A DNA stretch of 64,000 bases, taken from NCBI GenBank assembly GCA_020696385.1, contig JAEHCQ010000006.1:32001-96000 (forward strand), in the 5' to 3' direction. Of the stretch, positions 14,367 to 55,600 are shown piece after piece; the first letter of the stretch is position 1; each line of letters starts with the position of its first letter. A program made the position numbers and the translations under genes. The DNA comes from Methanobacteriota archaeon (lineage in GTDB: Archaea > Thermoplasmatota > Thermoplasmata > SG8-5 > JAGLSY01). The notes under the pieces were generated by a model, which was given only the letters and a program-made list of their open reading frames with translations, was not told where the DNA came from and ran no database searches.

Positions 14367-14367
14367 A

Positions 14368-15666: not shown

Positions 15667-15700
15667 ATCCCCCAAAAATAAAAGGGATGGAAATAACAAT

Positions 15701-15728: not shown

Positions 15729-15744
15729 CCCTTTCATATTTTAC

Positions 15745-16194: not shown

Positions 16195-16256
16195 TATTAT
16201 TATATATTTTATTTCATAATATATATTTTGAAGTAGGCTGGCAATAAATATTATGG

Positions 16257-16307
16257 CTATGTTCGCTCATTCCCTTTCCCATACTTGTACGCTATAGCGC
16301 ATACGCC
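16257..16307 (-). pseudogene. Diverged relic copy of a hypD 3' end
   Basis: The minus strand reads *GVCAIAYKYGKGNERT*, against the HypD C-terminus EGGCSIAYKYGKRGN*, about 80 bp away. Confidence 0.6.
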
Positions 16308-16342
16308 CTATCGCTCGTTTTCAACTCGCTTACGGGCTATGC

Positions 16343-17428: not shown

Positions 17429-17429
17429 A

Positions 17430-17834
17430 TTAGGATTCCTCCTTTTTCCCATCATCTTCGTCATCCACTATGAGCCTGACATTTCGTACCGTGCACTGTC
17501 TTCCATTCAGAATATCAACAGCTCCATTGCATTTTGGGCACATGATGATGGGTGAGGCATAATGGTACTCGTCATCAGGAGGATCCATAGGGCCGGTATA
17601 TCCACACTCTTTGCACCTGACATTTGCCACCATGTTGGCGATCAATAGCTGAGCTTTGGCCAGCAGTGTGTTTTTCTTGAGTGCATCAAAGGCAAATATA
17701 AGCTGGGCGGAGTTCAGAAAGGCCAGGTCGCCTACCTCCAAATAGACTTCTTCTATTCGGATGACCTTCTCATGCTTGCCAGCTTCCTCCAGAACTGCCT
17801 TAACAATACTTTCCACAACCGCGAACTCATGCAT
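17430..17834 (-). CDS. hypA: Hydrogenase nickel metallochaperone HypA
   Basis: N-terminal MHE; CKEC and CPKC Zn motifs. Confidence 0.95.
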   Translation of the reverse strand: MHEFAVVESIVKAVLEEAGKHEKVIRIEEVYLEVGDLAFLNSAQLIFAFDALKKNTLLAKAQLLIANMVANVRCKECGYTGPMDPPDDEYHYASPIIMCPKCNGAVDILNGRQCTVRNVRLIVDDEDDGKKEES

Positions 17835-17958
17835 TTTATTTCCTCTTTATAATATAATCATTTTTATAATTCTAATATGTATATATGTGGCCAGTTCATT
17901 CATTATTTAATCTCTCAATTCTTTCGAGCTTTTGAATGTTCGAATACGATTCGCACAT

Positions 17959-18177
17959 TCAAGTCTTCTCCATCAATTCCTCAAAGAGCTTCAGGGTCTC
18001 TTTTGCCTCTTTCTCATCCACCTTCTGGATGGCGAAGCCTGCGTGAACTATTACATAATCACCGATCTCGATTTCCAACATCGACATGTTCACTTCTCTG
18101 ATCACGCCAGAGCCGAAATCAACCTTGCTGATAGCTCCATCTAAAGCTATCACCTTTCCTGGTACTGCCAAGCACAT
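17959..18177 (-). CDS. hypC: Hydrogenase assembly chaperone HypC
   Basis: MCLAVPGKV ... GDYVIVHAGFAI. Confidence 0.97.
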   Translation of the reverse strand: MCLAVPGKVIALDGAISKVDFGSGVIREVNMSMLEIEIGDYVIVHAGFAIQKVDEKEAKETLKLFEELMEKT

Positions 18178-35866: not shown

Positions 35867-36956
35867 TGATAATGATAATGCAGAAAATATTGTACTCGTT
35901 AATAATGATAATGTCGATCCTAATCTTACTAATATCGTTCCAGATGACCATGATGATAACTCTAACCTTGACTTTGAGGACCTGTCCCGATTCAATAAGA
36001 AAAAAGACAAACTTTTCTTTCCGTTCACTGGCATAGTTGGTCAACAGTCTATGAAGAAAGGCCTTATTCTTGTCTCCGCCAATCCGCGCATCAGTTCTTT
36101 ATTGATAATCGGGGAAAATGGTACGGGGAAAGTCACAGCATCCATGGGATTACAGGCTTTTCTTCCCGATCTCGAGGTGTCTGCTCAGTGCACATCCAAT
36201 TGCGATCCTCGAAACAGTCTGTTCTTATGTACCACATGCAAAGATAGTGGGGTCACGAATGATGATAATATCATCCAAATACCAACTCCCTTCATGGTAT
36301 TGCCTGTTGGTACATCTCATGAGAGGATATTCGGTTCTTTCGAGAAGGACGGAAGCTTTGTTCCTGGTCTGATATCAATCGCAAATAGAGGTTATATCCT
36401 AATGGAAAGGGTCAATCTCCATGATGCCGATATGATAAGATCACTATTGGATATTCGTGACAAAGGAGTATGTGAATGCAAATGTGAAAAGGGTGAGTTT
36501 ACATTCACTCACCCTGCTCAGTTCACATTGATCGCAACTCTGAACCCGTCCGAGGGTGAACTGGATGAAGATATCTTGAAACGATTCCAATTAGTGGTTC
36601 ACACAAGAAGTCTGAAGGATATCGAGGAAAGGATAGAGATCGTGCGGAGGGTGGAGAGCTTCAAGGAGGATCCTCAGGAATTCCTGGATAAGAGCAAGAG
36701 GGAGCTCGACGGACTTAGGGCCGTGATAGAGAACTCAAGGCGATTATTGAAGAGGGCGGACATACCTTCGAAATCCATGGACGCGATAATCAATATCCTG
36801 AAGAGCCATGATACTGATAATCCAGCCATGCGGGACGCCATGGTCGAATCCACCAAGGCCAACACGGTCATCAATGACAGCACATGGGCATCTATCGAGG
36901 ATATTGCAGAGATAGTTGATATGGTCATGGCCTATCATATGAAGAAAGAAGCTTGA
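35859..36956 (+). CDS. Magnesium-chelatase subunit I-like AAA+ protein
   Basis: FPFTGIVGQ, Walker A GENGTGKVT, CTSNCDP, PGLISIANRG, HPAQFTLIATLNPSEGEL; atypical Walker B (LMERVN). Confidence 0.82.
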   Translation: MHDDNDNAENIVLVNNDNVDPNLTNIVPDDHDDNSNLDFEDLSRFNKKKDKLFFPFTGIVGQQSMKKGLILVSANPRISSLLIIGENGTGKVTASMGLQAFLPDLEVSAQCTSNCDPRNSLFLCTTCKDSGVTNDDNIIQIPTPFMVLPVGTSHERIFGSFEKDGSFVPGLISIANRGYILMERVNLHDADMIRSLLDIRDKGVCECKCEKGEFTFTHPAQFTLIATLNPSEGELDEDILKRFQLVVHTRSLKDIEERIEIVRRVESFKEDPQEFLDKSKRELDGLRAVIENSRRLLKRADIPSKSMDAIINILKSHDTDNPAMRDAMVESTKANTVINDSTWASIEDIAEIVDMVMAYHMKKEA

Positions 36957-38505: not shown

Positions 38506-39543
38506 TCAAAGGACCTTTCCATTCTTTATGATATCTTTTGTGGTTCCATCCATGTATGTTACCGCCATACTTGGTTTATTGAACAGGAAATCACGGTGTG
38601 TCTTTGAATTATTGGTCCCGTTGTTCATGTCCATATTGTTACCAAAGGCAATATGGGCTGTTTCCCCTGCCTTTTCATCCTCCAGAAGGTTTCCGACCAG
38701 TCTAGCATTGGGATTGAGCCCTATGCCAAGTTCTCCGATCGTTGAGGCCATCTCATCTATCGTGGTCAGTTCCCATAGATGTTTCACCATCTCCTTATCC
38801 TCACATTCCATGTCTGTCAATATACCATTTTTGATGGTCAATGTAAGTGGAACATCCAACATTCCAATGTCTCCGATGCTCCCATCCACAACTACTTTTC
38901 CACTACCTTTGGTCTCTGTTGGTGCACACCAGATCTCCCCTGCTGGGAGGTTTCCAAAGCTTTTCTTGTCAATAATGACGTCCGTGGAGAAGCACCGATC
39001 CTGAATATCAAGTATAAGATTAGTTCCTAATTCAGTGGTTATGTGAACCTCTTTTGCCTTATTGAACTTACTTTTCAAATCCATGGCATCCTTAACTATC
39101 TGTTCATAATCCACATTCATTGGCCCCTTGTACATCATTTCCTTTGTTATACCAGGGGCATGAGCCACTCTGACATCATAGGCGATCTCATCATAAAGCA
39201 ACTCAACACGAAATGGTGTTTCCTTCGCATCGCCATGGAAGGCATTGACAACCACATTATAATCTTTGAAAATTCCTTTTAACTGTTCCGGAAGTTTTTC
39301 CAGAGGTCTTTGGTGTTGAGAAATGGAATATAGATCGGTCTTCAGACCACCTAATCTCTTGGCACCACTGATGAAGGCATGACCGATATCCTGTTTTTCT
39401 TGATCTGTGACCACAAGAATATTCTGACCCTGGTCAAATGAAAGCACATTCTTCAGAGCTTTCTCCGCACCTTCGACCATCTTATTATAATTGGAGCATC
39501 TCTTGAAATCATCTTTGTTTGCTAATTCCATTATTTCAGCCAT
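38506..39543 (-). CDS. Aminopeptidase, M29 (thermophilic metalloprotease)-like
   Basis: GNLPAGEIWCAP, VVDGS, IGELGIGLN, EDEKAGETAHIAFG, HRD. Confidence 0.85.
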   Translation of the reverse strand: MAEIMELANKDDFKRCSNYNKMVEGAEKALKNVLSFDQGQNILVVTDQEKQDIGHAFISGAKRLGGLKTDLYSISQHQRPLEKLPEQLKGIFKDYNVVVNAFHGDAKETPFRVELLYDEIAYDVRVAHAPGITKEMMYKGPMNVDYEQIVKDAMDLKSKFNKAKEVHITTELGTNLILDIQDRCFSTDVIIDKKSFGNLPAGEIWCAPTETKGSGKVVVDGSIGDIGMLDVPLTLTIKNGILTDMECEDKEMVKHLWELTTIDEMASTIGELGIGLNPNARLVGNLLEDEKAGETAHIAFGNNMDMNNGTNNSKTHRDFLFNKPSMAVTYMDGTTKDIIKNGKVL

Positions 39544-39672: not shown

Positions 39673-42600
39673 TCAGTTTTCCTTTAGCTTAGCAAGGTTC
39701 TTCTCGAAGAGTTCCTCAGATATCTTTCCATCCTCGAATGCCTGCCTCAGTCGGAGAACACGCTCGTCCTCTTCAGGTGCTTCGAGAGTGGAGTCGATCG
39801 CTTCCTCTGTTTCAATGTCAGGTTCCACTTCATCTGTAATTTCAGGTTCTGCATTGATATCTGATTCAGTCTCAATATTTTCGGTTTCCATCTCGGATGA
39901 TATATCTTCGGATATATCAACATCTGAATCCTCTGGAATCTCATCATCAATGATTGAATCGCCTATCTCTTCGGGAGACATTTCCTCCTCAGGTATAGGT
40001 GGTTCTTCCATGTTGTCGATGTCTTCTGGAACTTCATCATCAATGATAGAGTCACCTATCTCTTCGGGGGACATCCCCTCCTCCGGTATAGGTGGTTCTT
40101 CCATGCCGTCGATGTCCTGTGGGATCTCATCTTCTGGCAGATATTCATCATCTGTCATATCGCCATCCAGTTCATCTCCGCCATGTAACTCATCATCTTC
40201 GATGCTTGTAACCTGGGCTGGTGTGTATTCCTCCGATTCAGGAGTATCTTTCCAGATCATCATGGCAATGAACATGCCGACCACAAGTCCAACGATCAAA
40301 AGAACGATCATCATTCCGATCGCTCCATAGTTGGTGGACTCCTCTGGTGTCAGTTCAACTGTGTGTCTCAATTCGACAATGTTACCTGCTTTGTCCTCTA
40401 CCTCTATTACAATGGTATTGAGTCCATAGCTCAGGAACACGGTCCTTTCGAATTCGGATATTCCTCTTGTAGAATCCACAGTCACCTGCTTTCCATTGAC
40501 CAGAACTCCTCCGATCTTCAGTTCTTCTTCATCTATCTCAGCACTGAAGGTGAAGTTGTCAGTATGTACCTCTGTTGGGAGTTCATCAAGGGTGATCATA
40601 GGCATTGTTTTGTCAAGAGTGATGTTCAACCAGTCATCAATGGTATTGCCTGCCATGTCCATGAATAATAGGTGTAATACATTCTCACCTTCCAATAGGT
40701 CCACAACCGTCGAGAAGGATCCATCGCTGTTCACAGTGATCTCTTTTCCATTTATGGTCATGTATCCTGATTCATCAACTTCTCCAGTTATTGTGATCTT
40801 GTCCTTATTGGTCCTTGAGCCTTCCTCGCTAACGAATCCCTCAAAGACTGGCATATTCAGATCCAACACGATTGTCCTTCTGACCTCTGCTTTGTTTCCT
40901 GCAAGGTCTATGGCAGATATAGTGATCATGTTCTTGCCATCTTCGAGGATGACATATGCGGAGAATTCTCCATTTGCCACATTTACATGCTCAACCTCGA
41001 CACCAAATATGTCCAAGGTGGCATCTGTCTCTATGAGACCTGAGATCTCATAATGATCATCTGTTGTGTATTCTGTGTTTGTTTCTGGGGTCTTAACATT
41101 CAGGGATGGCAATCCTGAATCTATCAAGAAGGTCCATGATTCCGTGAAGGTGTTGCCAGCCTGATCCATTATGGATGCTTCGACACTGTGGATACCATCA
41201 TCCATTTCAGATGGTGAAGAATAACTGATAGTACCTAGTGGGAAGCCTTGTACTGGCGATGGTGCTGTTGAATCTAAATCATCGACAAAAGGTACATTGG
41301 TGGAGGCCTGTGGTGTTACATCGACTCCATCAACTATCATCTTTGGACTATCCGGTACCAATTCTCCGAAATCATCCTTGAAATTTGCTGTTATTATTGG
41401 ATTGCTGTCGCGCATCACTTCCCCATCTCCTGGACCAAAGCCACTGCTTGTAGGTGCTATGGTATCGTACCTGAGATCGATTGGAAGTAGCATTGTGAAT
41501 GGAGCTTCACCAGGTCCAATGTACAAAGCACCTTGTAATGTTACTCCTTCCTTTGCACTTGGAAGATCATATCCCAGATCCAATTTTGATGTTGTGTATG
41601 CGGATAATGGTGTATCCGATTTCCACTGATCTGGGTTGTCTGGTGTAAGATCCACTCCTTCACCCTCAACACCAAATCCAAGTCCCTGCACATTTGTTAT
41701 ATCTATATCAAAGTGAGCTGGTATTGTTTTCAGAGCGAATCCATATATTATGATTATATAGTTTCCATCTGGAGGTCCTATGAGTTTCACCTGTTCATCT
41801 GCATCGAAATCCGCACCTATCGCAAAGCCCTCCTCTCCTTCAGCCTTTCCGTCTCCATTTTCATCATAGAAGACTCCAAGATCCAGGTCGGGGGCATTAT
41901 CATGACCGTATATGTGCACATCGAATATTAGGCAGTCTTTCAGGGTAACTTCTATTGTTGTATTACCTGAAGCCAGCTGATCCTCGAAGGTATCGTAGTT
42001 GCTCCAGTCTGGGTCATCCTCCCATACCTCCAAATCTTTGTAGCTGACTGGTGCTGATGGTCCTGCTGCTACACCACCGAAGTGTCCGCCGAGATCTATA
42101 TTGGAAACTCCACTTACACTTGCTGTACCCGCCAGTTCATTGGTGACTATGCTTATTTTATCAGAGTCTAGTGAGTAGGTTCCGACCCTTCCCTTAATTG
42201 GCTCAAGGTCTGAAGTACCATTCATGTGTACATTGTGTAGAGCGATGACATTCAGTCCGGCTCCTATATCTGGAGCACTGTATTCAAGTGGCCCGCCACT
42301 TGAAGTGAAGAAGGTCGCGGTCTCTGTACTACCACCATTTAATTGTAGTCCATGTGGTCCGTATCTATCTCCTGTGAAGGTATCTCCTGACTCTGGATTT
42401 ACTATCGTGAGTGCTCCAAAGGCAAATGCATCGATATCTGTTTGGCCTTTCCACCATTCTGCATTTATGAGCAGCTTGGTGTTGGAATCTGTGAAAGTTC
42501 CCTGGTCTGGGATGTCTACATAGTAGAATCTCCAGTCACCAGCCTTTCCTCCAGCTCCATCATATCCTGAGAGCATCATTGCCGGGTCGAAGAGTCTGTT

Positions 42601-45600
42601 CGTGTCATAGTATGAGTAGGTGACTTCCACATCTGCTCCATCTTGCGGCGCTGAAAGGAAATCTAATTGTCCAACTATTGGGTCGAAGACATATCTTCCA
42701 TAGCTGTAATCGATCTCAAAGAAATCCCCCGATTTCAGACCTGTGTAATTATAGTATGCTACTACTCTGTCCCCAGGTGCCATGACCCAGTTGTTAAGAG
42801 TTATGTCTCCAGTAACTGTATCTATTTTGTAATTAAGAACCCCATCAGTATCTGACTTTACCAATTTGAAGACACCGCTGGTATTCTCGTAGTAGAATGT
42901 ATTTGGTGCTGAATTTCCTATGGCATTCAAGTTATCATAGAGTACGGAGAACGAATCCTGGCCAGCACTGGCAGAATCAACCACTACCTCATTCTTTACT
43001 TCATTGAAGGTGTTCAGTTTTATCTTTCCTTCTATAGTTCCAGAATAATCGTAGTATGAATGAACAATCTCTCCGGCTCCAAGGGTCCAGCCATTAAGGG
43101 TTACCAAACCTGTATTGTAATTGATATTATAATTAGGTGATCCCGCGCTGGCACTCTCAATCATCGTGGTCCATACACCTGCATTTTGAAGATACAGAGT
43201 ATTGCCGGTGGTTGTCGATATTCCTTTATTTACCAGATTGAATTCGCTTTCTCCTCCTACGGCTGTAATGCTGATCTCATCCTTGACTGGTATCTGAGCC
43301 ATAAAGTATTGAAGCCCATCTGTCAAAGCATTTCCATTCCTGTATACCTGGTATCCAAGACTATCAGTGATCGATTTTGCACTATTATACAAGTTGACAT
43401 TGGCTATCGTTAGCTCTGTGACACCAACAGCGTATGTTCCATAGTTGGCTGTCACGACCATACCCCAATCAAGGGTAGTTCCGAACAAAATATCACCTGT
43501 CTGAAGGTTCAATGTATAATCGATTCCCTCGATCAGCAGTTCACCGTCAATGAACACAGTATAAGTTCCCGGTCCGATCTCGTATCCTGCTTCGAACGTA
43601 TCAATGTTGGCAGTTGTGGTGCTATTATCTTCTGCGATCAAGATCTCCTGATTTAAATACTCTCTACTATTATTCAATATTATCTCTCTGGATACTGTAT
43701 TGAACTTGGACAGAGCAATTCCATCCTCCTTCGTCACAAATGAATCCGGTATGATATTGGTATGTGAAAGCGTGAATTCAGTCTTTTTCGTTATGTTTGT
43801 GTATTCGACTCCGTATTCGTACTCTACGCACACTGAAGCTCCTTCAGGGATTCCACTTTCAAGCTCATAAGCTGCGGATGTATTGAAGGTGATGACTCCA
43901 GTATCATAATTTACATCATACCAGGATTCATTAGTGATTGGCAAAGTTCCATTGTAATAATTTGTGGAATTATAGCTGTACCAAGCGTATAGATAATCAC
44001 CAATCTCGAAGTCCCAGTCGAGAGTGAAAATACCCGTATTGTAGTCGAATGAAGCCCAGCCATTGTCCCATGTATCATCAACAGAGCCGTTGAGTGTTCC
44101 AGGGGCTCCAAGGTAATACCAGGCGCCATATGTGTACACATAAAATACTTCAGTACCAGGAACGATATTTTCATGGTCAAGTAGTACCGAAGTGAACCCT
44201 CCTGTTGCAGAGTTCTCAAGGACTGCTTCGTTGGTGATATTATATGTGTTATGATAAGTGTATGATACGTTATCCAAAGCAACACTTGTTACGTTATTCA
44301 AACTTCCATAAACCTCATAGTATGGGACATGATCTAGTGTGAACTCCGTCTGGTTGAATGTTGCATTGGAAGTAGACAAATGCGTCTCATTTGATATTGT
44401 GTAGTTCAAGGATGTGAACGAAAATGAATCAACACCGACAAAGTTCTCAACAGCATTCATTGCTGGCTTATCACCGAATTCGAAATTCGGGTTGTTTGCT
44501 GCAACATTGATGACCATTGGAATAACAGTGGTCTTTCCAACATTTGTTGTTGATGTTATTGCTCCCTCGTATGAACCGACACCTTCTGCTATTGCCTTTG
44601 CACTGTCAAGTGTGGCTGTGAAGGTTCCAGATGCTCCTGCTGGGATCGTCAATGCGCTATCTGAAAGTGTTACCCAGTCCCATGTTTGTCTTGAATAGTA
44701 CTCTGCTTTTATGAATATATCCAATTCTTCTGCGAGTGCCGCCATGTTACGGCTCCATATAGCAATTCCATCATGTATCCTGTTATTGTCGCTTTGATCA
44801 TGTACTCTACATTCCAGAACATTTCCACCTATGAATGCTCCTGACATTCTGTTCCTCTCTGCAAATAAGACTGGTGGATTATCGTATGGTCCTGCATTCA
44901 GATCACCATTCAGCTTTCCATCGCCATTCTCATCGGTCCAGTCATATAGTTCCAGCCAATAATCTGATGAAGTCGAGTATTGTGTTATCTTGACCAGATC
45001 TGTGCTTGTCCAGAGGCTGTTATCGACTTCGCTTATAAGTTCTCCATCTGGTGTGTAGAATCCAGTCTCATTCAATATGGTCCATCCATGGCCATAATCT
45101 GCATCTCTTGTTATGGTAGCGATCCCTTCTCCTGCCTTGAGTATCTCTCCTGCCATCAGATCGACATCGATACTGTTTGATAGGTCATGATTGTCAATGG
45201 TGAAGGTCTGTTCCAGATTCTCAGGGAGTGTATTCTCACTCACTAATTTGGCGAAGGCATCATACCTTTCTCCACCATAATCGCCAGGTACCCATGATGT
45301 TGGTGTTATAACTGAACCACCCATGTTTGATGCGATCTTGGCAGATTCCATAACGTCAACAAATCCAGCTCCCTGTGAGAGCACATCATAATCGATATCC
45401 TCTGCTCCAGACATTAGAATTGAACGTGCTGTTTCTATGTCCAGTGGATTGGTATGTGTGTCATCATATGCATCAGCTATTACTGCAATAGCAGCTGCCA
45501 GGTTTGAACTTGTCAATGCCTGACCAGACCAAATATTGACCGTGTCTGTGTAAACCGCATTTGGGCCTCTGTCATATTCTGCCCAGAGAGGTTCTGATAC

Positions 45601-48600
45601 GAATCCGAAGTAAGCTCCAGAAGCAACAACATCTGGCTTTGGATTTCCCATCATTGTCGGTCCCCTTCCGGAGACTGTGATTATATCACCATATGATGGA
45701 TTGGGTCCGCTATCCTGCTCTTCGACTATCCTGTAGAAGAAGTCAGTTGATAAACCAGCTGTGATAACTCCTGGTGCTGATCCAGGTGAGGAAACAGTTC
45801 CATATCCAGAGCCTGCACCACCTGATGTGGCTGTGAATATTGTCTTTCCATCTCCATATTCTGTGGCTAACCAGTCAACATATCTTGATGTGAAATCTCC
45901 ACCTGCTTCATAAGCACTTGTGGCCAGGGAACTACTGTATATATCTGCTTCATCGCCAGTTCCTGGAATTCCATCATAACCTTCTATAGCAAAGATCATA
46001 CCATCGTACATTGGATCAGTTATGCCTATTATTTTTGCATCTGGTGAAATTCCCAGGCAGGGCTTGACATTTATGTCGTTCCTGTGGTTTAATAATCCTT
46101 GCCCGGCTACTGCCGAGGCTCGAGATGTTCCTGCTGTCAGATCAAGTGCGTACTCACCATACATGGCAACCATCTCACCGTTCAAAGGAATGACATTATC
46201 AACACCGCTCCTTTCGGCAAGTCTTTCTGAATATGGTATTGGTAATCCATCATATTCATAGCTGATCGTAATGGCATTTCCAGTCTGGTTACTCGAGAAT
46301 GTTATGACAACCTCTTCAGAGTTCTGATAGTCAACTGTGTAATTACCGGACTCATCAACTAATAGTCCATCGATGTGAACCTCCCAGGAATTGTTCATAA
46401 CTCCAACATTGCCAAGCACGGCAGTTGTTCCTGTATCAAGGGTTAATGCTTCATCAGTAACAACACTTGCCTGACTGATATAGTATATCATACCTCCAGA
46501 TCTGTCTGCCAGACCATTTCCATCCATGTCTCTCCAGGATATCTCGTCACCCATCACACAAGCCTTTTCATCTGTGAAGTCTTGGTCATAATCCAGATCC
46601 ACATAGACAGTATCATAAACACTATCTATAGTGGAATCCACAAGAAGTACCTTGGAGTAATTGAATATTTGGCCAGAATAATTGTTCACGTATGTAGCCA
46701 GGTTCTCATCCATCAGAGTTCCAAGCCTGTAAACACCACTTACACTATCGATTCCAGTAACTGTGTATGCTGTCTTGATCACTGTTGGGTTAATAGTACC
46801 AATAGATTCAATATCTGCATCCACGAAGTCATTTTGATAATGTGCTTTCACGTATCTGATTTCATACTTAGTAACTGTTCCGACATTTCCATCGTCACCT
46901 GGTGCTGCCCAAGTAAGGTCTACTGTACCATCCCGACTTGTTGCGGTAGCAGTAAGGCTGATAGCATCTGGTGCTACATCATCGACCCTTGCAGTTCCAT
47001 TTGGTGAGTTTGATACGAGAGGGTTGTTCATACTCATCTCATCCTTTGCTATTAATGCAAAGAAATATTTGACGCCCTCATCAAAACCTGCGCCACTGAA
47101 ATTAAGGTATACATGGTCGCCACCTACAGGAACAAAGCCAAAGGTTGCCTCAAAGTTGGACTGGACGATAGACGCTCTCTGAGACACTGGTGTTGAACCC
47201 CATGTCGCATCTGTTACTGGGGCTGTATCATATCTGATCTCATAATTTTTAACCGAGCCTACCATTCCATCATCTCCTGGTGATATCCAGTCGAGCATTA
47301 TTTGTCCATGGTTATCGCTCTGCCCTACGTTAAGAGTGGTCACTGCGGGTCCAATGATATCATTCTGGACTATTGCATTATCGCAGTTTGATACAGAGGC
47401 ATTATTATCTCCATCATCTGCCTGGATCGCAAAGTAATAATCTATTCCTGCCGGTGGAGCAGACCAAACGGCTCCATCTGTTGTTCCTATGATAAGGGAT
47501 TGGAATGAACCACCTTTAAGTGGTGCGTCAACTGAGAAGTCTCTTGAGTACGTTCCAGATACACCATAATCAGATACAGTGTCTGGAATTGTATCCCAAT
47601 TTGTTTCATCTATTGTTGATGTGTAGTATTTCACAATATATTCCTGTGCCCATCCAACCATGCCATCATCTCCTGGTGCGGTGAAATTGAGATAAACAGT
47701 TCCGTGATCTGGGCCAGTTTCGACATTAAGGTCAGTGATCTGTGCTGGCTTGATAGTGTCGCTCGCTCTTGATACTGCTGAGCCATTGGGGTTTGAAATT
47801 GCTCCCATATTACCCGCTATATCAATTGCTATTATGGAGAAATAGTAAGTTGTGCCTGATAGGGGCATCATAAGAGTGTAGTTCTCAGTACTTCCTACGG
47901 ATTTAGGGTTCCAGTTCAATGAATCTGCATAAACTGTAGCGGCCTGGAACTCTGTATCATTTGTGATGTCGCTGGTACTGTATCTCAGCTCATAGCTGTC
48001 TGTATCTGTTATTGCAGTCCACTCTAAATATACTTGAGTGGAATTAGCTCCAGGGTATGCGGTTGGATCGATTCTTGCTGGTGCTATAATATCATCTGTG
48101 ACAGCTGCATTGTCTGTATTTGATACTTCTCCTGCATTACCTGCTTCATCAACAGCAACTATAGCGAAATAATAATCAGTGCCAATATCAAGTCCTGTCA
48201 AAGTATATGTTTCGACCAGGTTTGCATCTTTTGGCATCCATGTCTGCACATACTCATCGGCTAAGTAATCAAAGCATACCCAGTTGGTGATCGGGTCTTC
48301 AGAGTATTTTATGACATAATTTGTTGCAGTTCCTACGTCTGCATCATCTCCTGTTGCTGTCCAGCTTAGGTCCACTGTGCCGTGTATAACTCCATCTGTT
48401 GCCATAAAGTCAGTGATCTGGTCTGGTGCTGTGGTGTCCTCATTGGTCATTGCATCTGGGTTGTTTGAGAAATCACCATGGTTATTTGCTTCGTCTGTTG
48501 CTACTATATTGAAAAGGTAGTTTGTGTTTGCATCTAATCCCGTAACTGTGTAACTCTCTGCACCGCCTACGGATGTTGGAATGTATCCATTTGATTCTTT

Positions 48601-49875
48601 CAGAACTATGCGCTGTGAGTCAGGAACATTATCCCATGTGAAATATATGTATGATACTTCGATCTTGTTGACGAGGATAGAGGGAGAAAAAGAGATCTCG
48701 CCAAGATCATAGTTCACTGAATAAGCTGCTCCTGGAACTTCGACACCATCTGCATAAACTACGATACTGCCGATCTTCACGCTGCCATGACTCAATTTTG
48801 TGGATAATTTGACTTCTGCAGAATCACTGCTGAATGTGAGTTCCTTGATAACAGGAACTTCAATGTCCAGTTCAGGGTTATTTGGTGTGGAATATACGGT
48901 TGCTGTTTCATTTGTGCTCACATACCAGGTATCGGTTGTTTCGCCAGTATCAAGGTATGTGCTCATAGAATTGTAGTCGAACACAATTGGCCATCCAGCA
49001 TAGGGTGAATTGAATTGATAATCTGCTGTTACGATATCTCCCAATTCCAAAGCTGGTGTGAATGCGATAATGCCAGTATCAAGATCAAGTGTGTAATCTG
49101 TACCAGAGGTGATGGCTGTACCGTTCACGTAAATCGCGAATGTTCCAGGCATTATTCCACCAGATGATAATGATGTCTCATTCTCTCCACCAACTGCTTC
49201 CAGTATGGTCTCTCCAATTGCTTTTAGAGTGGCTGGAACTCTTGCCTGTGTGCCTTGAAGATCAGGGTGACCGAAATCTATCCCGCCTTCTGGTATAGCA
49301 ACATTTGAGCCAGTGCCTATGTAACCAGCAACCCAGGCATCCTGTGCATAGTGTTGCTTAGAGTCATACAATGATGCAGGTGAATTACCATTATCATTTC
49401 CATTGGCAAACAGGTTCTTCTCTTCTGGGTTTGTCATATCTAGTGATGTGTCTGGGTAAGCATAAACTCCATACACTCCAGAAAGACCTGCAATCTCATC
49501 CAGGCTGTTCAATGGGACGTCAAGAACATGGGTCATGAGCATGTTCTCATCTCCAGTATTCTTTGTGCCAAGAAGACCTTTGTATTCATATTTAGCAAGA
49601 GCAGTAGCCAGTTGTGCAGTATCTGTTGTGGCGACTATGACCTTGGTCATGCCCTTTGTGCCTTCTTTCATGAATTCTCCCAGGGCTGGATCTATCTTGG
49701 AAGATATATCACCAGCTAGGGTAGTGTCATCTACGATCTCATCGATCAGGTTGTCTATAAGCCCGTCAGATGTGGCATCATTGGTCATAAGGTTGCCCAT
49801 TGATCCAAATGCAGATAGCACGAACAGCCAAACTATACATACGCTCAAATATTTCTTTGTCTTGGTTTCAGACAT
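39673..49875 (-). CDS. Giant (3400 aa) cell-surface pyrolysin-like S8 protein with substituted catalytic residues, FN3 and Ig-like arrays, TM anchor and acidic tail
   Basis: Signal peptide; S8 scaffold motifs GIDFGHPDL, PGSAPGVITAG, SGRGP..PKPDVVASG, ILMSGA, QGAGFVD; FN3-like repeats (DxxAP..I..L...W.APGDDG..G...Y.I.Y); C-terminal Ig repeats (A.D.AGN), TM helix, SHOCT-like end. Confidence 0.85.
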   Translation of the reverse strand: MSETKTKKYLSVCIVWLFVLSAFGSMGNLMTNDATSDGLIDNLIDEIVDDTTLAGDISSKIDPALGEFMKEGTKGMTKVIVATTDTAQLATALAKYEYKGLLGTKNTGDENMLMTHVLDVPLNSLDEIAGLSGVYGVYAYPDTSLDMTNPEEKNLFANGNDNGNSPASLYDSKQHYAQDAWVAGYIGTGSNVAIPEGGIDFGHPDLQGTQARVPATLKAIGETILEAVGGENETSLSSGGIMPGTFAIYVNGTAITSGTDYTLDLDTGIIAFTPALELGDIVTADYQFNSPYAGWPIVFDYNSMSTYLDTGETTDTWYVSTNETATVYSTPNNPELDIEVPVIKELTFSSDSAEVKLSTKLSHGSVKIGSIVVYADGVEVPGAAYSVNYDLGEISFSPSILVNKIEVSYIYFTWDNVPDSQRIVLKESNGYIPTSVGGAESYTVTGLDANTNYLFNIVATDEANNHGDFSNNPDAMTNEDTTAPDQITDFMATDGVIHGTVDLSWTATGDDADVGTATNYVIKYSEDPITNWVCFDYLADEYVQTWMPKDANLVETYTLTGLDIGTDYYFAIVAVDEAGNAGEVSNTDNAAVTDDIIAPARIDPTAYPGANSTQVYLEWTAITDTDSYELRYSTSDITNDTEFQAATVYADSLNWNPKSVGSTENYTLMMPLSGTTYYFSIIAIDIAGNMGAISNPNGSAVSRASDTIKPAQITDLNVETGPDHGTVYLNFTAPGDDGMVGWAQEYIVKYYTSTIDETNWDTIPDTVSDYGVSGTYSRDFSVDAPLKGGSFQSLIIGTTDGAVWSAPPAGIDYYFAIQADDGDNNASVSNCDNAIVQNDIIGPAVTTLNVGQSDNHGQIMLDWISPGDDGMVGSVKNYEIRYDTAPVTDATWGSTPVSQRASIVQSNFEATFGFVPVGGDHVYLNFSGAGFDEGVKYFFALIAKDEMSMNNPLVSNSPNGTARVDDVAPDAISLTATATSRDGTVDLTWAAPGDDGNVGTVTKYEIRYVKAHYQNDFVDADIESIGTINPTVIKTAYTVTGIDSVSGVYRLGTLMDENLATYVNNYSGQIFNYSKVLLVDSTIDSVYDTVYVDLDYDQDFTDEKACVMGDEISWRDMDGNGLADRSGGMIYYISQASVVTDEALTLDTGTTAVLGNVGVMNNSWEVHIDGLLVDESGNYTVDYQNSEEVVITFSSNQTGNAITISYEYDGLPIPYSERLAERSGVDNVIPLNGEMVAMYGEYALDLTAGTSRASAVAGQGLLNHRNDINVKPCLGISPDAKIIGITDPMYDGMIFAIEGYDGIPGTGDEADIYSSSLATSAYEAGGDFTSRYVDWLATEYGDGKTIFTATSGGAGSGYGTVSSPGSAPGVITAGLSTDFFYRIVEEQDSGPNPSYGDIITVSGRGPTMMGNPKPDVVASGAYFGFVSEPLWAEYDRGPNAVYTDTVNIWSGQALTSSNLAAAIAVIADAYDDTHTNPLDIETARSILMSGAEDIDYDVLSQGAGFVDVMESAKIASNMGGSVITPTSWVPGDYGGERYDAFAKLVSENTLPENLEQTFTIDNHDLSNSIDVDLMAGEILKAGEGIATITRDADYGHGWTILNETGFYTPDGELISEVDNSLWTSTDLVKITQYSTSSDYWLELYDWTDENGDGKLNGDLNAGPYDNPPVLFAERNRMSGAFIGGNVLECRVHDQSDNNRIHDGIAIWSRNMAALAEELDIFIKAEYYSRQTWDWVTLSDSALTIPAGASGTFTATLDSAKAIAEGVGSYEGAITSTTNVGKTTVIPMVINVAANNPNFEFGDKPAMNAVENFVGVDSFSFTSLNYTISNETHLSTSNATFNQTEFTLDHVPYYEVYGSLNNVTSVALDNVSYTYHNTYNITNEAVLENSATGGFTSVLLDHENIVPGTEVFYVYTYGAWYYLGAPGTLNGSVDDTWDNGWASFDYNTGIFTLDWDFEIGDYLYAWYSYNSTNYYNGTLPITNESWYDVNYDTGVITFNTSAAYELESGIPEGASVCVEYEYGVEYTNITKKTEFTLSHTNIIPDSFVTKEDGIALSKFNTVSREIILNNSREYLNQEILIAEDNSTTTANIDTFEAGYEIGPGTYTVFIDGELLIEGIDYTLNLQTGDILFGTTLDWGMVVTANYGTYAVGVTELTIANVNLYNSAKSITDSLGYQVYRNGNALTDGLQYFMAQIPVKDEISITAVGGESEFNLVNKGISTTTGNTLYLQNAGVWTTMIESASAGSPNYNINYNTGLVTLNGWTLGAGEIVHSYYDYSGTIEGKIKLNTFNEVKNEVVVDSASAGQDSFSVLYDNLNAIGNSAPNTFYYENTSGVFKLVKSDTDGVLNYKIDTVTGDITLNNWVMAPGDRVVAYYNYTGLKSGDFFEIDYSYGRYVFDPIVGQLDFLSAPQDGADVEVTYSYYDTNRLFDPAMMLSGYDGAGGKAGDWRFYYVDIPDQGTFTDSNTKLLINAEWWKGQTDIDAFAFGALTIVNPESGDTFTGDRYGPHGLQLNGGSTETATFFTSSGGPLEYSAPDIGAGLNVIALHNVHMNGTSDLEPIKGRVGTYSLDSDKISIVTNELAGTASVSGVSNIDLGGHFGGVAAGPSAPVSYKDLEVWEDDPDWSNYDTFEDQLASGNTTIEVTLKDCLIFDVHIYGHDNAPDLDLGVFYDENGDGKAEGEEGFAIGADFDADEQVKLIGPPDGNYIIIIYGFALKTIPAHFDIDITNVQGLGFGVEGEGVDLTPDNPDQWKSDTPLSAYTTSKLDLGYDLPSAKEGVTLQGALYIGPGEAPFTMLLPIDLRYDTIAPTSSGFGPGDGEVMRDSNPIITANFKDDFGELVPDSPKMIVDGVDVTPQASTNVPFVDDLDSTAPSPVQGFPLGTISYSSPSEMDDGIHSVEASIMDQAGNTFTESWTFLIDSGLPSLNVKTPETNTEYTTDDHYEISGLIETDATLDIFGVEVEHVNVANGEFSAYVILEDGKNMITISAIDLAGNKAEVRRTIVLDLNMPVFEGFVSEEGSRTNKDKITITGEVDESGYMTINGKEITVNSDGSFSTVVDLLEGENVLHLLFMDMAGNTIDDWLNITLDKTMPMITLDELPTEVHTDNFTFSAEIDEEELKIGGVLVNGKQVTVDSTRGISEFERTVFLSYGLNTIVIEVEDKAGNIVELRHTVELTPEESTNYGAIGMMIVLLIVGLVVGMFIAMMIWKDTPESEEYTPAQVTSIEDDELHGGDELDGDMTDDEYLPEDEIPQDIDGMEEPPIPEEGMSPEEIGDSIIDDEVPEDIDNMEEPPIPEEEMSPEEIGDSIIDDEIPEDSDVDISEDISSEMETENIETESDINAEPEITDEVEPDIETEEAIDSTLEAPEEDERVLRLRQAFEDGKISEELFEKNLAKLKEN
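39932..40131 (-). repeat. 93-bp (31-aa) tandem repeat in the acidic cytoplasmic tail
   Basis: About 2.1 copies of E[IV]P[QE]DID[GN]MEEPPIPEE[GE]MSPEEIGDSIIDD; units start at 39932 and 40025. Confidence 0.85.
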
Positions 49876-50144: not shown

Positions 50145-52316
50145 TCAACTATCTTTTTTTGGCTTTTTTTCATTACCTTTTCCACGTTTTTTAACGGCGT
50201 AAAATATCGTAATAAATATACTGCCTATCAGAACCAAAAGTGCAAGAATTTTGTAGGGGGGCCATGGATTTATTTCATCAATTGTATAATCTATATCATA
50301 TATAATTCCATTTTCACCATATTCTTGCGTCATTATGACGGCTGTATAGTTCCCCGGAACTCCGTCAAGGGGGACATAGTATTTGCCAGACCATTTCCCG
50401 GATGAGCTCTTCTTCAGATTCACGACCTTGCCATCTGCCATATTGACCTGCACTCCCTCCGTCCCAGGGCTTGCTGGAACATTGAATTCAAGGGTCTGTC
50501 CGAAGAACCCATTATATTTATCGCTTTTTGGATATAATATTATCCACGACGATATTGAATCTATGAACTCAATGGTGCCCTCCTCTCCGTAATGATTATT
50601 GGTGAATGGGTCTGTATCCGATATGCCCATGACATTGTTGTCGTACATGCAGAAATCAGCATTGCTGTAGTCCTGCGAATCCTTTTCATAGCCATCTCTG
50701 GCCCCCACATCTAGCCTTTCTCCCCAGGCAGTGGAAGATGCCTCGGCCAAAACGGTCATGTTCGCTTCACTCAATAATATCCCGCTCTTATAGGCTTTCA
50801 TATTGAATCCATAACTGTGTGATATGGATGGATTGAACCCTTCCGTAATCGAGTCAGGGGATGGGTCATAGATGGTATAATATGGAAATGATAGGCCGAA
50901 TTGGCTAGCATATTCATTGATCGGAGATTCCTTTGTTTCATGTAAATATTTATCGGGCCAGTCAATTAAATAGAGCAAAGTGTAAGAATCACTCATCAAG
51001 ATATATTTTGTATCCGGATCGATGGTGGTATTTGATGGCATCTGTAGTGGGTTGACGATCATGACCGCATCGTATTTCTTGTGGTCAATATCAAGGGCTG
51101 ATGAGAACACCCTGATCCCATTGTCCCTCATCCTCTTCGCCATTGAAAGCATGCCGCTGGGGCTATCATCTACATTTCTTGTGTGGCTTCTACCGTCAAA
51201 CAATACAGAGGCCATCGTCTTCTTTGGAATTGAGAGCAGGTACACGATCTTTGAGCTCTCACCTGTTCTGAACTCGATGAACCCGTCCTCTTGAATGGTC
51301 ACGTCATATACCCACCGACCATCATTTCCATTGTCCTCGGCCTGGCCGATCTCCCCACCCTCGATCCTTACGTCTAATGCCACACCTTCCGTCACTGTGA
51401 CATTCAGCCTGAACTCCTCAGCGGTGATCAGGTCGTATTCGGGTATGATCTTGTGCTCATTGGTATTCTCTTTGCCGCTCAGCCACTTGAATATACTGAG
51501 GGTGAATTCGGTGTCGTTCCCGTATTGCAGCCCAATGACCTCATCTCCATTCCATATGAACTCTGTGTCTGTGACCGCGATGATCCTTCCATCTCCATAA
51601 CTGGATGCAGCAACGATCGGGGCGTTTGGAGGGATGCCTACATCGGTTGTGTTCGCTATCGCGATCGCATTTCCGGACAAGTTCATTGAATTGGTGAAGT
51701 AAAGGCAGAAATCCTCAACGCCCAGGAATTTTGAATCGGCGATTGGCCAAATGGTATAATCTGGATGGGAGCTGCCTACATCATCGACCTCGTTTGAATT
51801 GAAATGGATACCAAAGTTCTCGGCCAGTGGATTTAAGAAGGCCGACGTATACCAAGATGTTGCTCCCTCCATCTCGTGCTCGCTCATGATAAGCAGGCCA
51901 CCGCCCCTCTCTGTGAAGTCAAGAATGGCCTGAATCTCCTCATCACGGAATGACTCCTGATATGCCATTCCCAGGACGAGCACATCACCTTCACCTTTAT
52001 CGACTATTGCATATTCCAGAGGGGCCGTGTTGGCACTGACTAAGTATCCCTCGCCCTCCAGTAAAATGGCAAGGTCAGAATAACCTATAAACCCTGTGTC
52101 CCAAAGCGACCACCATTGACGATGGCTTTCATCGAAGATTATCTCTTTGATGTCTGTATCAGTGATTGAATTGCGTACTCCTGTATCATTATGACCTTCG
52201 TAATGAGCGCTATCATTATTCACTGCCAATACTGGCATGATTAGAAAAAGTATGATCATCGCAGATAATAGACCAATTAAATATTCTTTCAAAGGCACCA
52301 TTACATCGTACAACAT
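50145..52316 (-). CDS. Secreted, C-terminally anchored protein with two GIFT/DUF4350-like (GATase-like) domains
   Basis: Signal peptide; IIFDESH..GYSDLAILL..GGGLLIMSEH..LNPLAENFGI..YGDGRIIAVTD; second copy VLFDGRSH...INEYASQFGL; C-terminal TM helix and basic tail. Confidence 0.65.
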   Translation of the reverse strand: MLYDVMVPLKEYLIGLLSAMIILFLIMPVLAVNNDSAHYEGHNDTGVRNSITDTDIKEIIFDESHRQWWSLWDTGFIGYSDLAILLEGEGYLVSANTAPLEYAIVDKGEGDVLVLGMAYQESFRDEEIQAILDFTERGGGLLIMSEHEMEGATSWYTSAFLNPLAENFGIHFNSNEVDDVGSSHPDYTIWPIADSKFLGVEDFCLYFTNSMNLSGNAIAIANTTDVGIPPNAPIVAASSYGDGRIIAVTDTEFIWNGDEVIGLQYGNDTEFTLSIFKWLSGKENTNEHKIIPEYDLITAEEFRLNVTVTEGVALDVRIEGGEIGQAEDNGNDGRWVYDVTIQEDGFIEFRTGESSKIVYLLSIPKKTMASVLFDGRSHTRNVDDSPSGMLSMAKRMRDNGIRVFSSALDIDHKKYDAVMIVNPLQMPSNTTIDPDTKYILMSDSYTLLYLIDWPDKYLHETKESPINEYASQFGLSFPYYTIYDPSPDSITEGFNPSISHSYGFNMKAYKSGILLSEANMTVLAEASSTAWGERLDVGARDGYEKDSQDYSNADFCMYDNNVMGISDTDPFTNNHYGEEGTIEFIDSISSWIILYPKSDKYNGFFGQTLEFNVPASPGTEGVQVNMADGKVVNLKKSSSGKWSGKYYVPLDGVPGNYTAVIMTQEYGENGIIYDIDYTIDEINPWPPYKILALLVLIGSIFITIFYAVKKRGKGNEKKPKKDS

Positions 52317-52631: not shown

Positions 52632-55600
52632 ATGGATAATGATAAAGGAACTAAACAGTTTGTGAGCATGGCAGTTGCTATTGTTATAGCACTAAGCATG
52701 ATTCTATCCGCTACTGCACTGTTGATCAACATTCCAGTTAATGTAACTGGTGCTGACGTCAGTGAAGAGCAGGTAGTCGCACAACCACCAAGCACAGAAA
52801 TATGGTTGAAGAATGCGAGATTCAATACAGCAATGGGAGACCCGGCAATGCCTTCTACCCTTGGAATCAACGCATACCCAAACCATGTCAAGGGTACATA
52901 CATAGTGCAGAAGAGTGGAGCAGTAACCGAGGAATGGAAAGCTGATATCGCCAGGGCAGGCGGAGAAATACTCAGCTACATCCCGGACAATGCTTTACTT
53001 GTACGTATGGACAACAGTGCAAAAGGTAGAGTTGAGGCGGTAAATGGCAATCAATGGACTGGTATATACCAGCCAGCCTACAAGATCAGCCCAGAGCTGG
53101 ACGGTAGGCATGGTGAAGTGACCGTTAACATTGATATTTTCGATGGAGGCAACAATGGTCCGGCAGTAAGATTACTGAAGGACAACGGAGGTACAATAAT
53201 ATCTGTTGTTAGGAACGATAATATCAACAAGATCGTTGCAAAGTTCGATGCTTCCCTGATGGGCGATCTCGCCTCATTCCCAGATGTTAGCTGGATGAGC
53301 GAGGGCGTACAGAATAAGATCGTCAATGACGGATCAGTTCTCATCGCTCAGTCTGGTGTTCCACCAACATCAGCTATAATCCATGGCTATGGAATACAGG
53401 GCCAGGGGCAGGTAGTTGCAATTGGTGATTCCGGTCTGGCAGAAGGATTGGGAGCTACTGATGTAGACCACGACAACTTCAATGGCGGCGGATATGACGT
53501 CGGCTCTGGAGACAAGGTTTTGGACTACTACGTACCAGGAGATGCAGATGGTGCACTTGGTGACGAGGCTGGAGCTTCATACCACGGTAGCCACGTTGCA
53601 GGTACAGTATTGGGTGACGGAGCACCATATGGCGCATACACTACAGCATCATATGATGGTCACGCATACATGGCTCAGGTTATTTTCCAGGATATGGGTA
53701 GAGAAGATGATCCCGCTACACCAGTAGTAAATGAAGTGGAGTTCATCTACTCACCAACTGATTCCTACAATGATATGTTCTTTATCACAGAGGAAGCAGG
53801 CGCCAAGTTCCACACGAACAGCTGGGGCGGCGGATTTGGATACATGAGCGATGCACAGCAAGAGGATCTGTACATGTGGGACAGCCAGGATTACACCATC
53901 CTTTTCGCAGCAGGTAACGATGGCGCTGCAGACACAGTTGGTTCACAGGCAGAGTTGAAGAACGGATTTGCCGTTGCTTCACTTTCTGCAACAGGAACTT
54001 CACTGTCTTCTTTCAGTAGCAGGGGTCCAGCCGTTGACGGTAGGATAAAACCTGACATAGCATTCTGTGGAGAATCCATCATGTCTGTAGACGGCGGTGG
54101 AGGATTCCAGTCCATGCAGGGAACAAGTATGGCGACACCTGGTGTTGCCGGTAACCTTGCATTGGTTCGCCAGTACTACACAGAGGGATGGTACCCAACT
54201 GGTGCTGAGATCTCAGCAAACGGTTTCAATCCATCCGCTGCATTGATAAAGGCCACTGTCTTGAATGGTGGTAATGATATCAGCAGCTCAAGACCTGACT
54301 TTTCTCAGGGCTGGGGCAGATTGAACTTGGATGACAGTTTGTATTTCAGTGGAGATGCAATGAATGTGTTCGCACATGATAACTTAGAGGGAATGGTCAC
54401 AGGAGATTACATTGATTTCCCAATAGGTGTCGATTCTGGTGCATTGGACTTCACAGCAACTGTTGTATGGACCGATTACCCAGGTAATCCAACTGCAGCC
54501 AAGATGTTAGTTAACGATCTCGGCCTGCTTGTTATGGGACCCGGTGGAACACAATGGAGAGGTAACAACCATGCAGGTGGTTACTCTCAGGCCACTGGAA
54601 CTTCCAATAACTATGACAGTCTCAACAATGTAGAGGATGTTAGGATAAACAACCCAGCAGCCGGTACATATGTCGTAAGGGTATCTGCAGAGAACATCGC
54701 AATGGGACCACAGAACTTCGCAGTCGTGATCTCCGGTGCACTCACTGATGGATACGGAATGGTCTTCATGGACAGAACAGTTTATGATGATGCAGATTCC
54801 ATAACCGTGACAGTTGAGGACTCAAACAACCCAGCACCAACCGTTGATGTTACTTTGACAACAGCAATAACTGGTGACTCAGAGACAATAACACTTGGAT
54901 GGACAGCTATTCAGTCTGGTGTCTACAATGTAGGTGCCCCGATAGCAACCAATGTCGCTTCCGTTGCAGCAGATGGTGTATTGCAGGTCGCTCATGGTGA
55001 CACAATAACAGCATCATATGATGATGGAGACCCAAGTTTCACTGCGACAACCGTTGCATGGGCTGATTTCCACGGACCTTTGATAAGCAATGTGTTCGTA
55101 ACTGGCATCACAGGTACAACTGGTGTTCCAACATGGGACACGGATGAGAATGCTGACAGCCTTGTGACCTACAGGACTGCAGAGGTAATATCACCTCCAA
55201 TACCTGCAGGATCTTGGCTGACTTCATCTGTCGGTGACCTATCACTTATGCACAGTGTTCCATGTAAGGGCCTTGCAGAAGATACCAAGTACGAGTTCTA
55301 TGTCGAGTCAACTGACTGGCGTGGAAGGACAACCATGGACGACAATGGTGGACGTTTCTACACATTCAGGACAACAAGCGCAGCCTCTGGTGGTGCTTTG
55401 ATCCTTCTTGTGGACGATGACATCGGTAGTGTATCTGATATAGATGGTGCACCATTCGAATTGGACTGGATGAACAACCTGGACAACTACGGATGGACCT
55501 ACACACACTGGGACATGAACATCCTTGGATCTCCAACAACAGCAGATCTTAATCAGGCTCCAATGATCATCTGGACCGTGTCTGAGGGATACCCACAGAT

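Follow-up and report, generated by a model that had tools for sequence, protein, structure and literature searches.

The giant gene and its product

The window analysed here, a stretch of 64,000 nucleotides from contig JAEHCQ010000006.1 of a Thermoplasmata archaeon (C47:32001-96000 in our contig numbering), carries on its minus strand the gene of a protein of 3400 amino acids, P0001, and divergently transcribed upstream of it the gene of P0002, a serine protease of the subtilase family (S8). P0001 is built on a subtilase domain that is split by inserted domains and in which all four catalytic positions are substituted, and we consider it probable that it is anchored in the membrane and, without catalysing anything itself, acts at the cell surface as partner of the active protease encoded next to it. 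An earlier note on this DNA, made from the letters alone, had described a frame of 10.2 kb as intact; indeed, the open reading frame (ORF) is stop-free over 10,203 nucleotides, and orthologues of 3378 and 3322 amino acids are intact in other metagenome-assembled genomes (MAGs). The features of the two proteins are as follows (positions in the window; residues refer to P0001; HMM, hidden Markov model).

39673..49875, minus strand: whole gene of P0001, predicted type-I surface protein of 3400 amino acids (stop-free ORF)
49786..49851, minus strand: N-terminal hydrophobic segment, residues 9-30 (hydropathy scan), likely a signal peptide
49447..49713, minus strand: subtilase propeptide-like (I9-like) domain, residues 55-143 (AlphaFold2 model, VIA-align)
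49234..49380, minus strand: N-part of the S8 domain, residues 166-214, a helix and the Asp-strand motif GTGSNVAIPEGGIDFGHPDL with E196 (43-member alignment, two-chain model)
49009..49155, minus strand: copy 1 of a 48-residue module, residues 241-289, inside insertion 1 (215-290) (module HMM, E 1.1e-20)
46744..48813, minus strand: six FN3-like units inside insertion 2 (327-1034), with borders at residues 355-463, 480-579, 595-688, 706-822, 839-947 and 965-1044 (Pfam fn3 1.4e-15, iterated HMM)
46474..46773, minus strand: family-typical segment of the Asp-His insert, residues 1035-1134 (BLASTP to residues 242-334 of the relative P0085, 50% identity)
46249..46401, minus strand: module copy 3, residues 1159-1209, inside insertion 3 (1135-1211) (module HMM; insertion relative to the family HMM)
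45316..46242, minus strand: C-part of the S8 domain, residues 1212-1520, with A1248, G1353 and A1453 (Pfam, alignments, AlphaFold2, Foldseek, PDB profile)
44464..45315, minus strand: family-shared domains following the S8 domain, residues 1521-1804 (BLASTP, collinear with P0085 339-941)
42604..44463, minus strand: insertion 4, residues 1805-2424, with seven module copies (1925-2423), the least conserved region of P0001
41467..42603, minus strand: C-terminal family domains, residues 2425-2803 (collinear with P0085 943-1296)
40351..41466, minus strand: membrane-proximal Ig-like stalk of Big_13 and Glucodextranase-B domains, residues 2804-3175 (Pfam)
40252..40323, minus strand: transmembrane helix, residues 3185-3208 (hydropathy; the same anchor is present in the second giant of this genome)
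39676..40251, minus strand: acidic tail of about 190 amino acids, presumably cytoplasmic, residues 3209-3400 (translation)
52632..57440, plus strand: P0002, divergent S8 protease of 1602 amino acids with intact D266/H318/N429/S499 (Pfam S8 5.2e-34)
56892-57437, plus strand: C-terminal domain of P0002, about 170-182 amino acids (no Pfam match)

A subtilase domain split in sequence

The S8 homology of P0001 has to be sought with parts of the protein or with profiles, since whole-protein Pfam and NCBIfam scans detect no S8 domain and a direct BLASTP comparison with the neighbouring P0002 is not significant (best E 0.77, over an SxRGPxxxGxxKPD motif). Residues 1176-1575 match Pfam PF00082 with an E value of 3.1e-14 (53.4 bits at a cut-off of 21.8; profile positions 58-286 of 288) and the subtilase SubHal with 1.4e-5. 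A profile made from 32 family sequences finds 134 PDB sequences at E<=0.001, best of all the KP-43 protease (2.6e-35), and matches KP-43, SubHal, Tk-SP, Vpr, site-1 protease and tripeptidyl-peptidase II (TPPII) at 2.6e-35 to 6e-20. The AlphaFold2 model of residues 1176-1575 (predicted local distance difference test, pLDDT, 71; predicted template modelling score 0.74) gave 191 PDB matches in Foldseek at E<=0.001, with Vpr as the best (1.3e-11) and subtilases in all top-ranked rows listed. The likeness to the S8 protease at 52632 that the earlier note had read from motifs is therefore borne out by profile and fold and not by direct alignment of the two proteins.

The Asp strand lies far upstream of the rest of the domain. 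GTGSNVAIPEGGIDFGHPDL of P0001 aligns with the Asp-strand motif of 43 relatives, and the discontinuous domain, whose structure prediction had been proposed in that note, was modelled as two chains (residues 150-235 and 1215-1530). The score was 0.85 (runs 0.86, 0.85 and 0.85) versus 0.02 for the best control; the mark applied is reached by 51 of 78 solved complexes and by 2 of 108 mismatched pairs. The runs agree on at least 72% of the contacts, at a partner pLDDT of at least 57. In the model, strands 1279-1283 and 1311-1314 take strand 187-193 between them, and residues 1248-1250 and 1453 are part of the interface. The S8 fold of P0001, split in sequence, would accordingly reassemble as one domain in these models. 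Since subtilases are abundant among solved structures, passing this test means likeness to a known fold and is not independent proof, and the high score may come from solved subtilases that the model has learned.

The fold also appears to extend to a propeptide. Residues 55-143 are modelled as beta-alpha-beta-beta-alpha-beta (block mean pLDDT about 53-93) and superimpose in VIA-align on the N-propeptide of Tk-SP (3afg_B) with Z 9.5 over 83 aligned residues at a root-mean-square deviation of 2.8, and on the propeptides of PCSK9 (Z 6.9), CspB, cucumisin and subtilisin E with Z 5.5-6.9. A Foldseek search with the N-terminal model returned no match at E<=0.001. A propeptide HMM matches 17 of the 18 members of the subclade. 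By its modelled fold, P0001 thus seems to have the I9-like propeptide organisation.

Nested insertions and the C-terminal anchor

Comparison with a compact relative with intact triad (P0085, 1298 amino acids) separates the family core of P0001 from what has been added. The collinear core consists of residues 59-214, 291-326, 1035-1134, 1212-1804 and 2425-2803; relative to P0085, P0001 has insertions at 215-290, 327-1034, 1135-1211 and 1805-2424 and a C-terminal extension. The distance from E196 to A1248 is 1052 residues, as compared with a median Asp-His spacing of 239 amino acids in intact family members and an Asp-His insert of about 200 in the compact ones. About 1000 amino acids had been noted between the two positions before, which is right for the gap, but the gap holds the family core segments 291-326 and 1035-1134, and the rest is made up of three lineage-specific insertions. 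The segment 1035-1134 is common to compact intact relatives and is 91% identical to the orthologue. Where roughly six FN3-like units had been noted in this gap, an iterated HMM gives six in P0001 and the same number in every one of 8 orthologues; unit 1 overlaps with module copy 2 (residues 366-413).

The 48-residue module is present in about 10 copies, one of them weak: three fall within the Asp-His gap, the other seven within insertion 4. It had been placed before and after the S8 domain; the copies after it are indeed there, the others are in the gap, and none is N-terminal of the Asp motif. The module repeatedly matches the profile of DUF2460, a phage distal tail protein family, at positions 129-176 of 205. 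Copy 1, which has no counterpart in P0085, likewise matches Pfam PF09343 at 129-176. Full-length membership in DUF2460/TIGR02217 was not found (TIGR02217 score 36.5 versus a cut-off of 136.65), and judged from these profiles P0001 shares a module with the phage tail family and is not a member of it. The model of the module is similar to small beta domains found in the tail and tailspike proteins of phages, with Z 6-7.8, which is below 8 and gives leads only, and insertion 4 likewise gives weak leads only in the ESM Atlas, to phage virion and tail proteins (score 0.83). Other relatives carry different domains at the same insertion sites: WD40 propellers between Asp and His, and NosD-type beta-helices after the S8 domain.

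Behind the S8 domain, a Fn3_5/invasin-D3-like beta domain near residues 1734-1794 is weakly indicated (Pfam fn3_5 E 0.013, below the cut-off), as is a KP-43/PPC-like beta-barrel near residues 2655-2736 (weak profile match to the C-domain of KP-43, 10.9 bits). The C-terminal family domains do not match residues 668-710 of P0002 significantly by BLASTP alone. The stalk matches PF09136 in three stretches (8.8e-36) and PF19077 in four (2.5e-14). In the acidic tail a Pro/Glu-rich stretch of ~30 amino acids is repeated almost exactly, and the helix motif at the end of the tail is shared with P0011 and with the paralogous second giant. Pfam finds nothing in the propeptide region of P0001, in residues 2425-2803 or in the acidic tail.

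The catalytic site is lost

The catalytic columns were placed by alignment to SubHal and by MAFFT and HMM alignments of 43-44 family members. The Asp position is occupied by E196 (VAIPEGGID 192-200, codon 49288-49290), the His position by A1248 (LTAGTSRAS 1246-1254, codon 46132-46134) and the Ser position by A1453 (WSGQALT 1449-1455, codon 45517-45519), exactly the replacements that had been read from the sequence before. For the oxyanion-hole Asn an exchange to Gly in the motif TSGGAG (1350-1355) had been given; the exact equivalent is its second Gly, G1353 (codon 45817-45819). P0001 has neither Asp, His and Ser in the order of an active S8 enzyme nor the oxyanion-hole Asn.

Moreover, different orthologues have different residues at the catalytic positions (E/Q/P/G/D, then A/W/F/S/Y/I/R, then A/G/T/S). 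Across the 12-sequence subclade of P0001 no His or Cys is invariant within residues 1215-1530, and each invariant Ser is a scaffold residue that is also present in active relatives. Positions that are conserved in at least 85% of the intact relatives are relaxed in the subclade, namely the His, the Asn, the Thr-Ser, a Pro and the S-x-G cleft strand, whose residues we take to be S125 and G127 in BPN' numbering. A hidden alternative triad is unlikely, given such free variation at the catalytic positions, with neither a His nor a Cys kept throughout and with Ser kept throughout only where it belongs to the scaffold. It is well supported by these alignments that P0001 cannot be a subtilisin-type serine protease and should be non-catalytic.

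A clade of giants without a working triad

A word-indexed search yielded 44 giant relatives including P0001, the named ones from Thermoplasmata archaeon; the exhaustive search of cluster representatives gave 550 proteins at E<=1e-3 and 102 at E<=1e-30. All four catalytic positions could be called in 161 of 185 proteins, of which 113 keep Asp/His/Ser and 48 do not. FastTree was run on 403 columns for 175 of the 185 proteins, and the resulting phylogeny contains a clade, supported at 99, in which all 51 rows are broken. The broken/intact label changes 4 times on this tree, as compared with a mean of 46 after shuffling (0 of 500 shuffles as low). When the three catalytic columns were removed before a quick IQ-TREE was built from 77 rows (34 broken, 43 intact), all broken proteins again fell on one side, with 1 change and a Shimodaira-Hasegawa-like approximate likelihood ratio test value of 99. 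Apparently, there is a clade of giant Thermoplasmata surface proteins that, by these alignments, all lack a working triad; clustering at 50% identity leaves at least 51 representatives of it. Of 22 genomes from the order, 18 encode members of the giant family, as do 7 of 7 high-quality genomes, and every matching frame is open.

Within the clade, a group of 20 rows that includes P0001 has lost everything. A group of 31 rows keeps Asp and His and has Asp/Glu at the Ser position, often together with Asp at the Asn position; judged from these residues, its site could be re-tooled, for example for metal binding, or could be an intermediate stage of decay. Patterns seen in this second group (e.g. 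P0025, P0040, P0063, P0084 and P0098) are DHDD, DHND and DHDE, mostly without propeptide.

The dead core is the most constrained part

A syntenic orthologue of P0001 in another MAG (P0004, locus L001) allowed the ratio of nonsynonymous to synonymous substitutions (dN/dS), a check suggested before, to be calculated by the method of Nei and Gojobori. With dS about 1, near saturation, so that the values are rough, dN/dS is 0.16 over the whole gene, 0.063 in the S8 C-part (residues 1226-1520; 92% amino acid identity), 0.088 in the S8 N-part (87%) and 0.12-0.22 in the other ectodomain regions (62-77%). The pieces of the S8 core are the most conserved versus all 6 orthologues compared, down to about 50% identity, and the inserted arrays the least conserved versus the same six. 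These comparisons give good support to the view that P0001 is maintained and that, within it, constraint is strongest on the dead S8 core. A maintained, non-catalytic protein had been proposed from the sequence of P0001; the four substituted positions, the 51-member clade without triad, the lack of an invariant His or Cys and the constraint on the core all speak for it.

A conserved head-to-head gene pair

All giant-family loci found in the order were inspected for a partner, which we defined as an opposite-strand ORF with a match to P0002 or to the S8 HMM and a start no more than 3.5 kb upstream; loci with at least 2.5 kb of upstream sequence were taken as assessable. Among 36 broken giants, 24 have such a partner, 2 lack one and 10 could not be assessed, which means that a dead subtilase is genetically coupled to an active one at 24 of 26 assessable loci. 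The gene order in G006, a genome of the same genus, is that of the window; in G019, G021, G014 and G004 the head-to-head arrangement of the S8 genes is direct. The partners are apparently working enzymes: His, Asn and Ser are intact in 21 of the 21 that cover these positions (4 partners are truncated), and the Asp column holds D in 17 of 21, one of the four exceptions, G004, showing D in a separate MAFFT alignment.

A second pair is encoded by the same genome outside the window (C47:146024-161621), where the gene of an intact S8 protease of 2000 amino acids on the minus strand lies head-to-head with, and 311 nucleotides from, that of a giant of 3096 amino acids. The latter keeps Asp, His and Asn, has Glu for Ser and shares the transmembrane anchor and acidic tail with P0001. 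A tree of 21 partners falls into the same three groups as the giants (P0001-type, Gln-type and His-retaining). Since the partner tree mirrors the groups of the giants, the pairs seem to be inherited and duplicated as units. The link to an active protease nearby, which had been suggested from one locus, thus holds in 24 of 26 assessable loci, with pairs that have co-diversified.

Discussion

A dead subtilase encoded head-to-head with a working protease gene is probably the non-cutting partner of that protease, and we consider this the probable role of P0001: a membrane-anchored surface protein that serves the active P0002 without being an enzyme itself. We infer a physical or functional coupling of the two proteins and, likewise, a role in capture or in regulation. 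In the model we propose, the dead S8 core would be a rigid hub, its halves rejoined and the propeptide-like domain still attached, from which the FN3 units and the phage-tail-like modules would loop out as arrays; the ectodomain would stand on the Ig-like stalk, the transmembrane helix and the acidic tail, and P0001 would hold substrates or P0002 itself at the cell surface, or control P0002, without cutting. A receptor, an adhesin, an S-layer stalk and a substrate-capturing scaffold had been listed as possible functions in the earlier note. These are not told apart by the data, except that peptide binding in the canonical cleft is less likely because the propeptide fold is kept, cannot be removed by the protein itself, and the cleft residues are relaxed.

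Several points weigh against this interpretation. The confidence of the AlphaFold2 models is middling (pLDDT 71 and 62), the surface exposure of the ectodomain and its localisation are predicted from hydropathy only, the dN/dS values suffer from the near saturation mentioned above, and the FastTree and quick IQ-TREE phylogenies are without bootstraps and do not infer the root. Two related dead giants (G008_C210 and G014_C66) have no P0002-like partner upstream. At L041 (G003:C45:1-18000), a giant at 9694-18000 on the plus strand has His, Asn and Ser intact and is yet head-to-head with a P0002-like S8 gene, so that the pairing is not specific to dead giants; since this intact giant is also paired, the pairing may predate the catalytic loss. 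Finally, we dropped the idea of a specific docking site for the giant in the C-terminal domain of P0002, as this domain is generic: it recurs on 17 large ORFs of the genome (709-8676 amino acids).

It is tempting to speculate further that dead and live subtilases form obligate, cognate two-protein machines at the cell surface, in which the conserved core of each giant docks on or activates its own partner, the pair is duplicated and co-diversifies as a unit, several pairs are present per cell and the arrays (FN3, WD40, beta-helix) set the range of substrates or targets. This extension is tentative, and we would not expect all of it to hold.

The main rival is an independent adhesin or structural protein of the surface layer, in which the dead core is a scaffold for arrays that bind particles, polymers or cells and the adjacency to P0002 reflects shared regulation. 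The arrays are of the binding type (FN3, Big_13, Glucodextranase-B and modules like the adaptor domains of phage tails and tailspikes), relatives have WD40 propellers or beta-helices at the same sites, the inserted arrays evolve fastest, as binding surfaces should, and two related giants do without a partner. However, pairing at 24 of 26 loci together with co-diversification is hard to explain by shared regulation alone, and the strongest constraint is on the dead core and not on the arrays. We therefore regard an independent role in adhesion or in the envelope as rather unlikely.

Closer to the partner function of P0001 is a regulatory pseudoprotease like CspC/CspA, with a dead core that binds the zymogen of the partner or a small ligand and thereby triggers or restrains the active S8 enzyme. 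According to the accessible parts of the reports, the pseudoproteases CspC and CspA of Clostridioides difficile function alongside the active CspB (PMC7200643, PMC12880746, PMC13434707), and with them P0001 has in common the subtilase fold, the substituted catalytic residues, the kept prodomain and an active subtilase alongside. The conserved, cognate and co-diversifying pairs and the constraint on the core are also in line with such a function. P0001 differs from CspC/CspA in being archaeal, 3400 amino acids long and membrane-anchored, in having an S8 domain split by about 1050 amino acids with nested insertions and with all four catalytic positions lost, and in its partner, which is a divergently transcribed surface protease and not a spore protein. 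The Csp proteins are soluble and thus unlike an anchored protein of this size that carries large binding arrays, and the NCBIfam models of CspC/CspA (NF040808/NF040809), including CspC_non_triad, do not match P0001; P0002 shows weak sub-threshold matches to NF040808/NF040809. Regulation strictly in the Csp manner is, in our opinion, improbable.

Glu can replace Asp in some catalytic triads, and with an S8 domain so strongly conserved P0001 might still be a hydrolase that uses unconventional residues, such as E196 and another nucleophile. With Ala at the His and Ser positions, variation of all catalytic positions among orthologues and no invariant His or Cys in the domain, we give this hardly any credence. 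A decaying pseudogene or an assembly artefact, as the loss of the triad and the failure of the whole-protein Pfam scan to find S8 might suggest, is already contradicted by the intact 10.2-kb frame, by full-length orthologues with conserved synteny in independent MAGs and by a dN/dS of 0.16 overall and 0.06 in the dead domain.

Among structurally known S8A enzymes, KP-43, SubHal, Tk-SP and Vpr are closest to P0001, in sequence (1wmd 2.6e-35, 5fax 1.7e-34, 3afg 1.8e-34) as well as in fold (8jmw, 1.3e-11), and its propeptide is nearest to that of Tk-SP; Tk-SP and Tk-subtilisin are the nearest solved archaeal relatives. These enzymes, however, have 400-800 amino acids, intact triads and contiguous catalytic domains. 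TPPII is likewise an S8 enzyme with a large Asp-His insert, Asp44 and His264 being about 220 amino acids apart; it is active, cytosolic and eukaryotic, and the match of the family profile to TPPII (3lxu, 6e-20) covers the His-Ser part only (profile 263-528). PCSK9 is a binding protein with subtilase fold whose prodomain still sits in the cleft, and this prodomain is among those that match the N-terminal model of P0001. In contrast to P0001, PCSK9 keeps its triad and cleaves itself once, and it is eukaryotic, soluble and without inserted arrays. In the accessible parts of the literature searched on pseudoproteases, subtilases and extracellular peptidases of Thermoplasmata, no archaeal pseudo-subtilase was found.

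To our knowledge, the subtilase-family pseudoproteases described so far are mainly the Csp proteins of clostridial germination. The archaeal clade described here would show the Csp type of logic at a very different scale, with giant, anchored, dead subtilases genetically tied to live ones. It also indicates that the S8 fold can accommodate, at fixed sites, nested insertions 75-700 residues long, be it FN3, WD40 or beta-helix arrays, which bears on protein engineering and on the recruitment of pseudoenzymes as scaffolds. Surveys of Thermoplasmata that count extracellular S8 peptidases as evidence for protein degradation would miscount dead giants as enzymes; that peptidase gene counts are a poor predictor of activity is stated in the accessible part of a previous study (PMC9123169).

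Further genes of the locus

Three more features of the neighbourhood are of interest here, the first two being as follows.

50145..52316, minus strand: membrane protein of 723 amino acids, DUF4350/GIFT-like (Pfam PF14258 6.5e-11; hydrophobic segments at both ends)
38506..39543, minus strand: M29 aminopeptidase downstream of the giant, with no evident N-terminal signal (Pfam PF02073 5.1e-18)

In the window and in G006 the DUF4350/GIFT-like gene separates the two S8 genes; tblastn found none in six other contigs examined. Its product also has similarity to ABC_transp_aux. The M29 gene is found downstream of the giant in G006, G019 and G021 as well.

The third is the C-terminal domain of P0002. 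In 15 of the 17 large ORFs on which it occurs it is at or near the C-terminus, and in the ESM Atlas it is found stand-alone in unnamed archaeal clusters (0.95). From this distribution it looks like a lineage-specific domain for surface attachment or sorting. Two adjacent open frames on the minus strand of another contig (C11:82622-108604 and C11:108580-134607), of 8661 and 8676 amino acids, have the P0002-type domain near their C-termini.

Beyond the active S8 gene, window positions 58064-62797 on the minus strand encode a protein of 1577 amino acids that is weakly similar to TPR/ANAPC3 and has a prokaryotic RING finger close to the C-terminus; it adjoins the active S8 gene in G006, too (85% identity). 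On the other side of the giant, at 33101-36956 on the plus strand, a gene for a VWA and AAA protein of 921 amino acids (Mg-chelatase/MoxR-like) overlaps a gene for a Mg_chelatase-like AAA protein of 365 amino acids.

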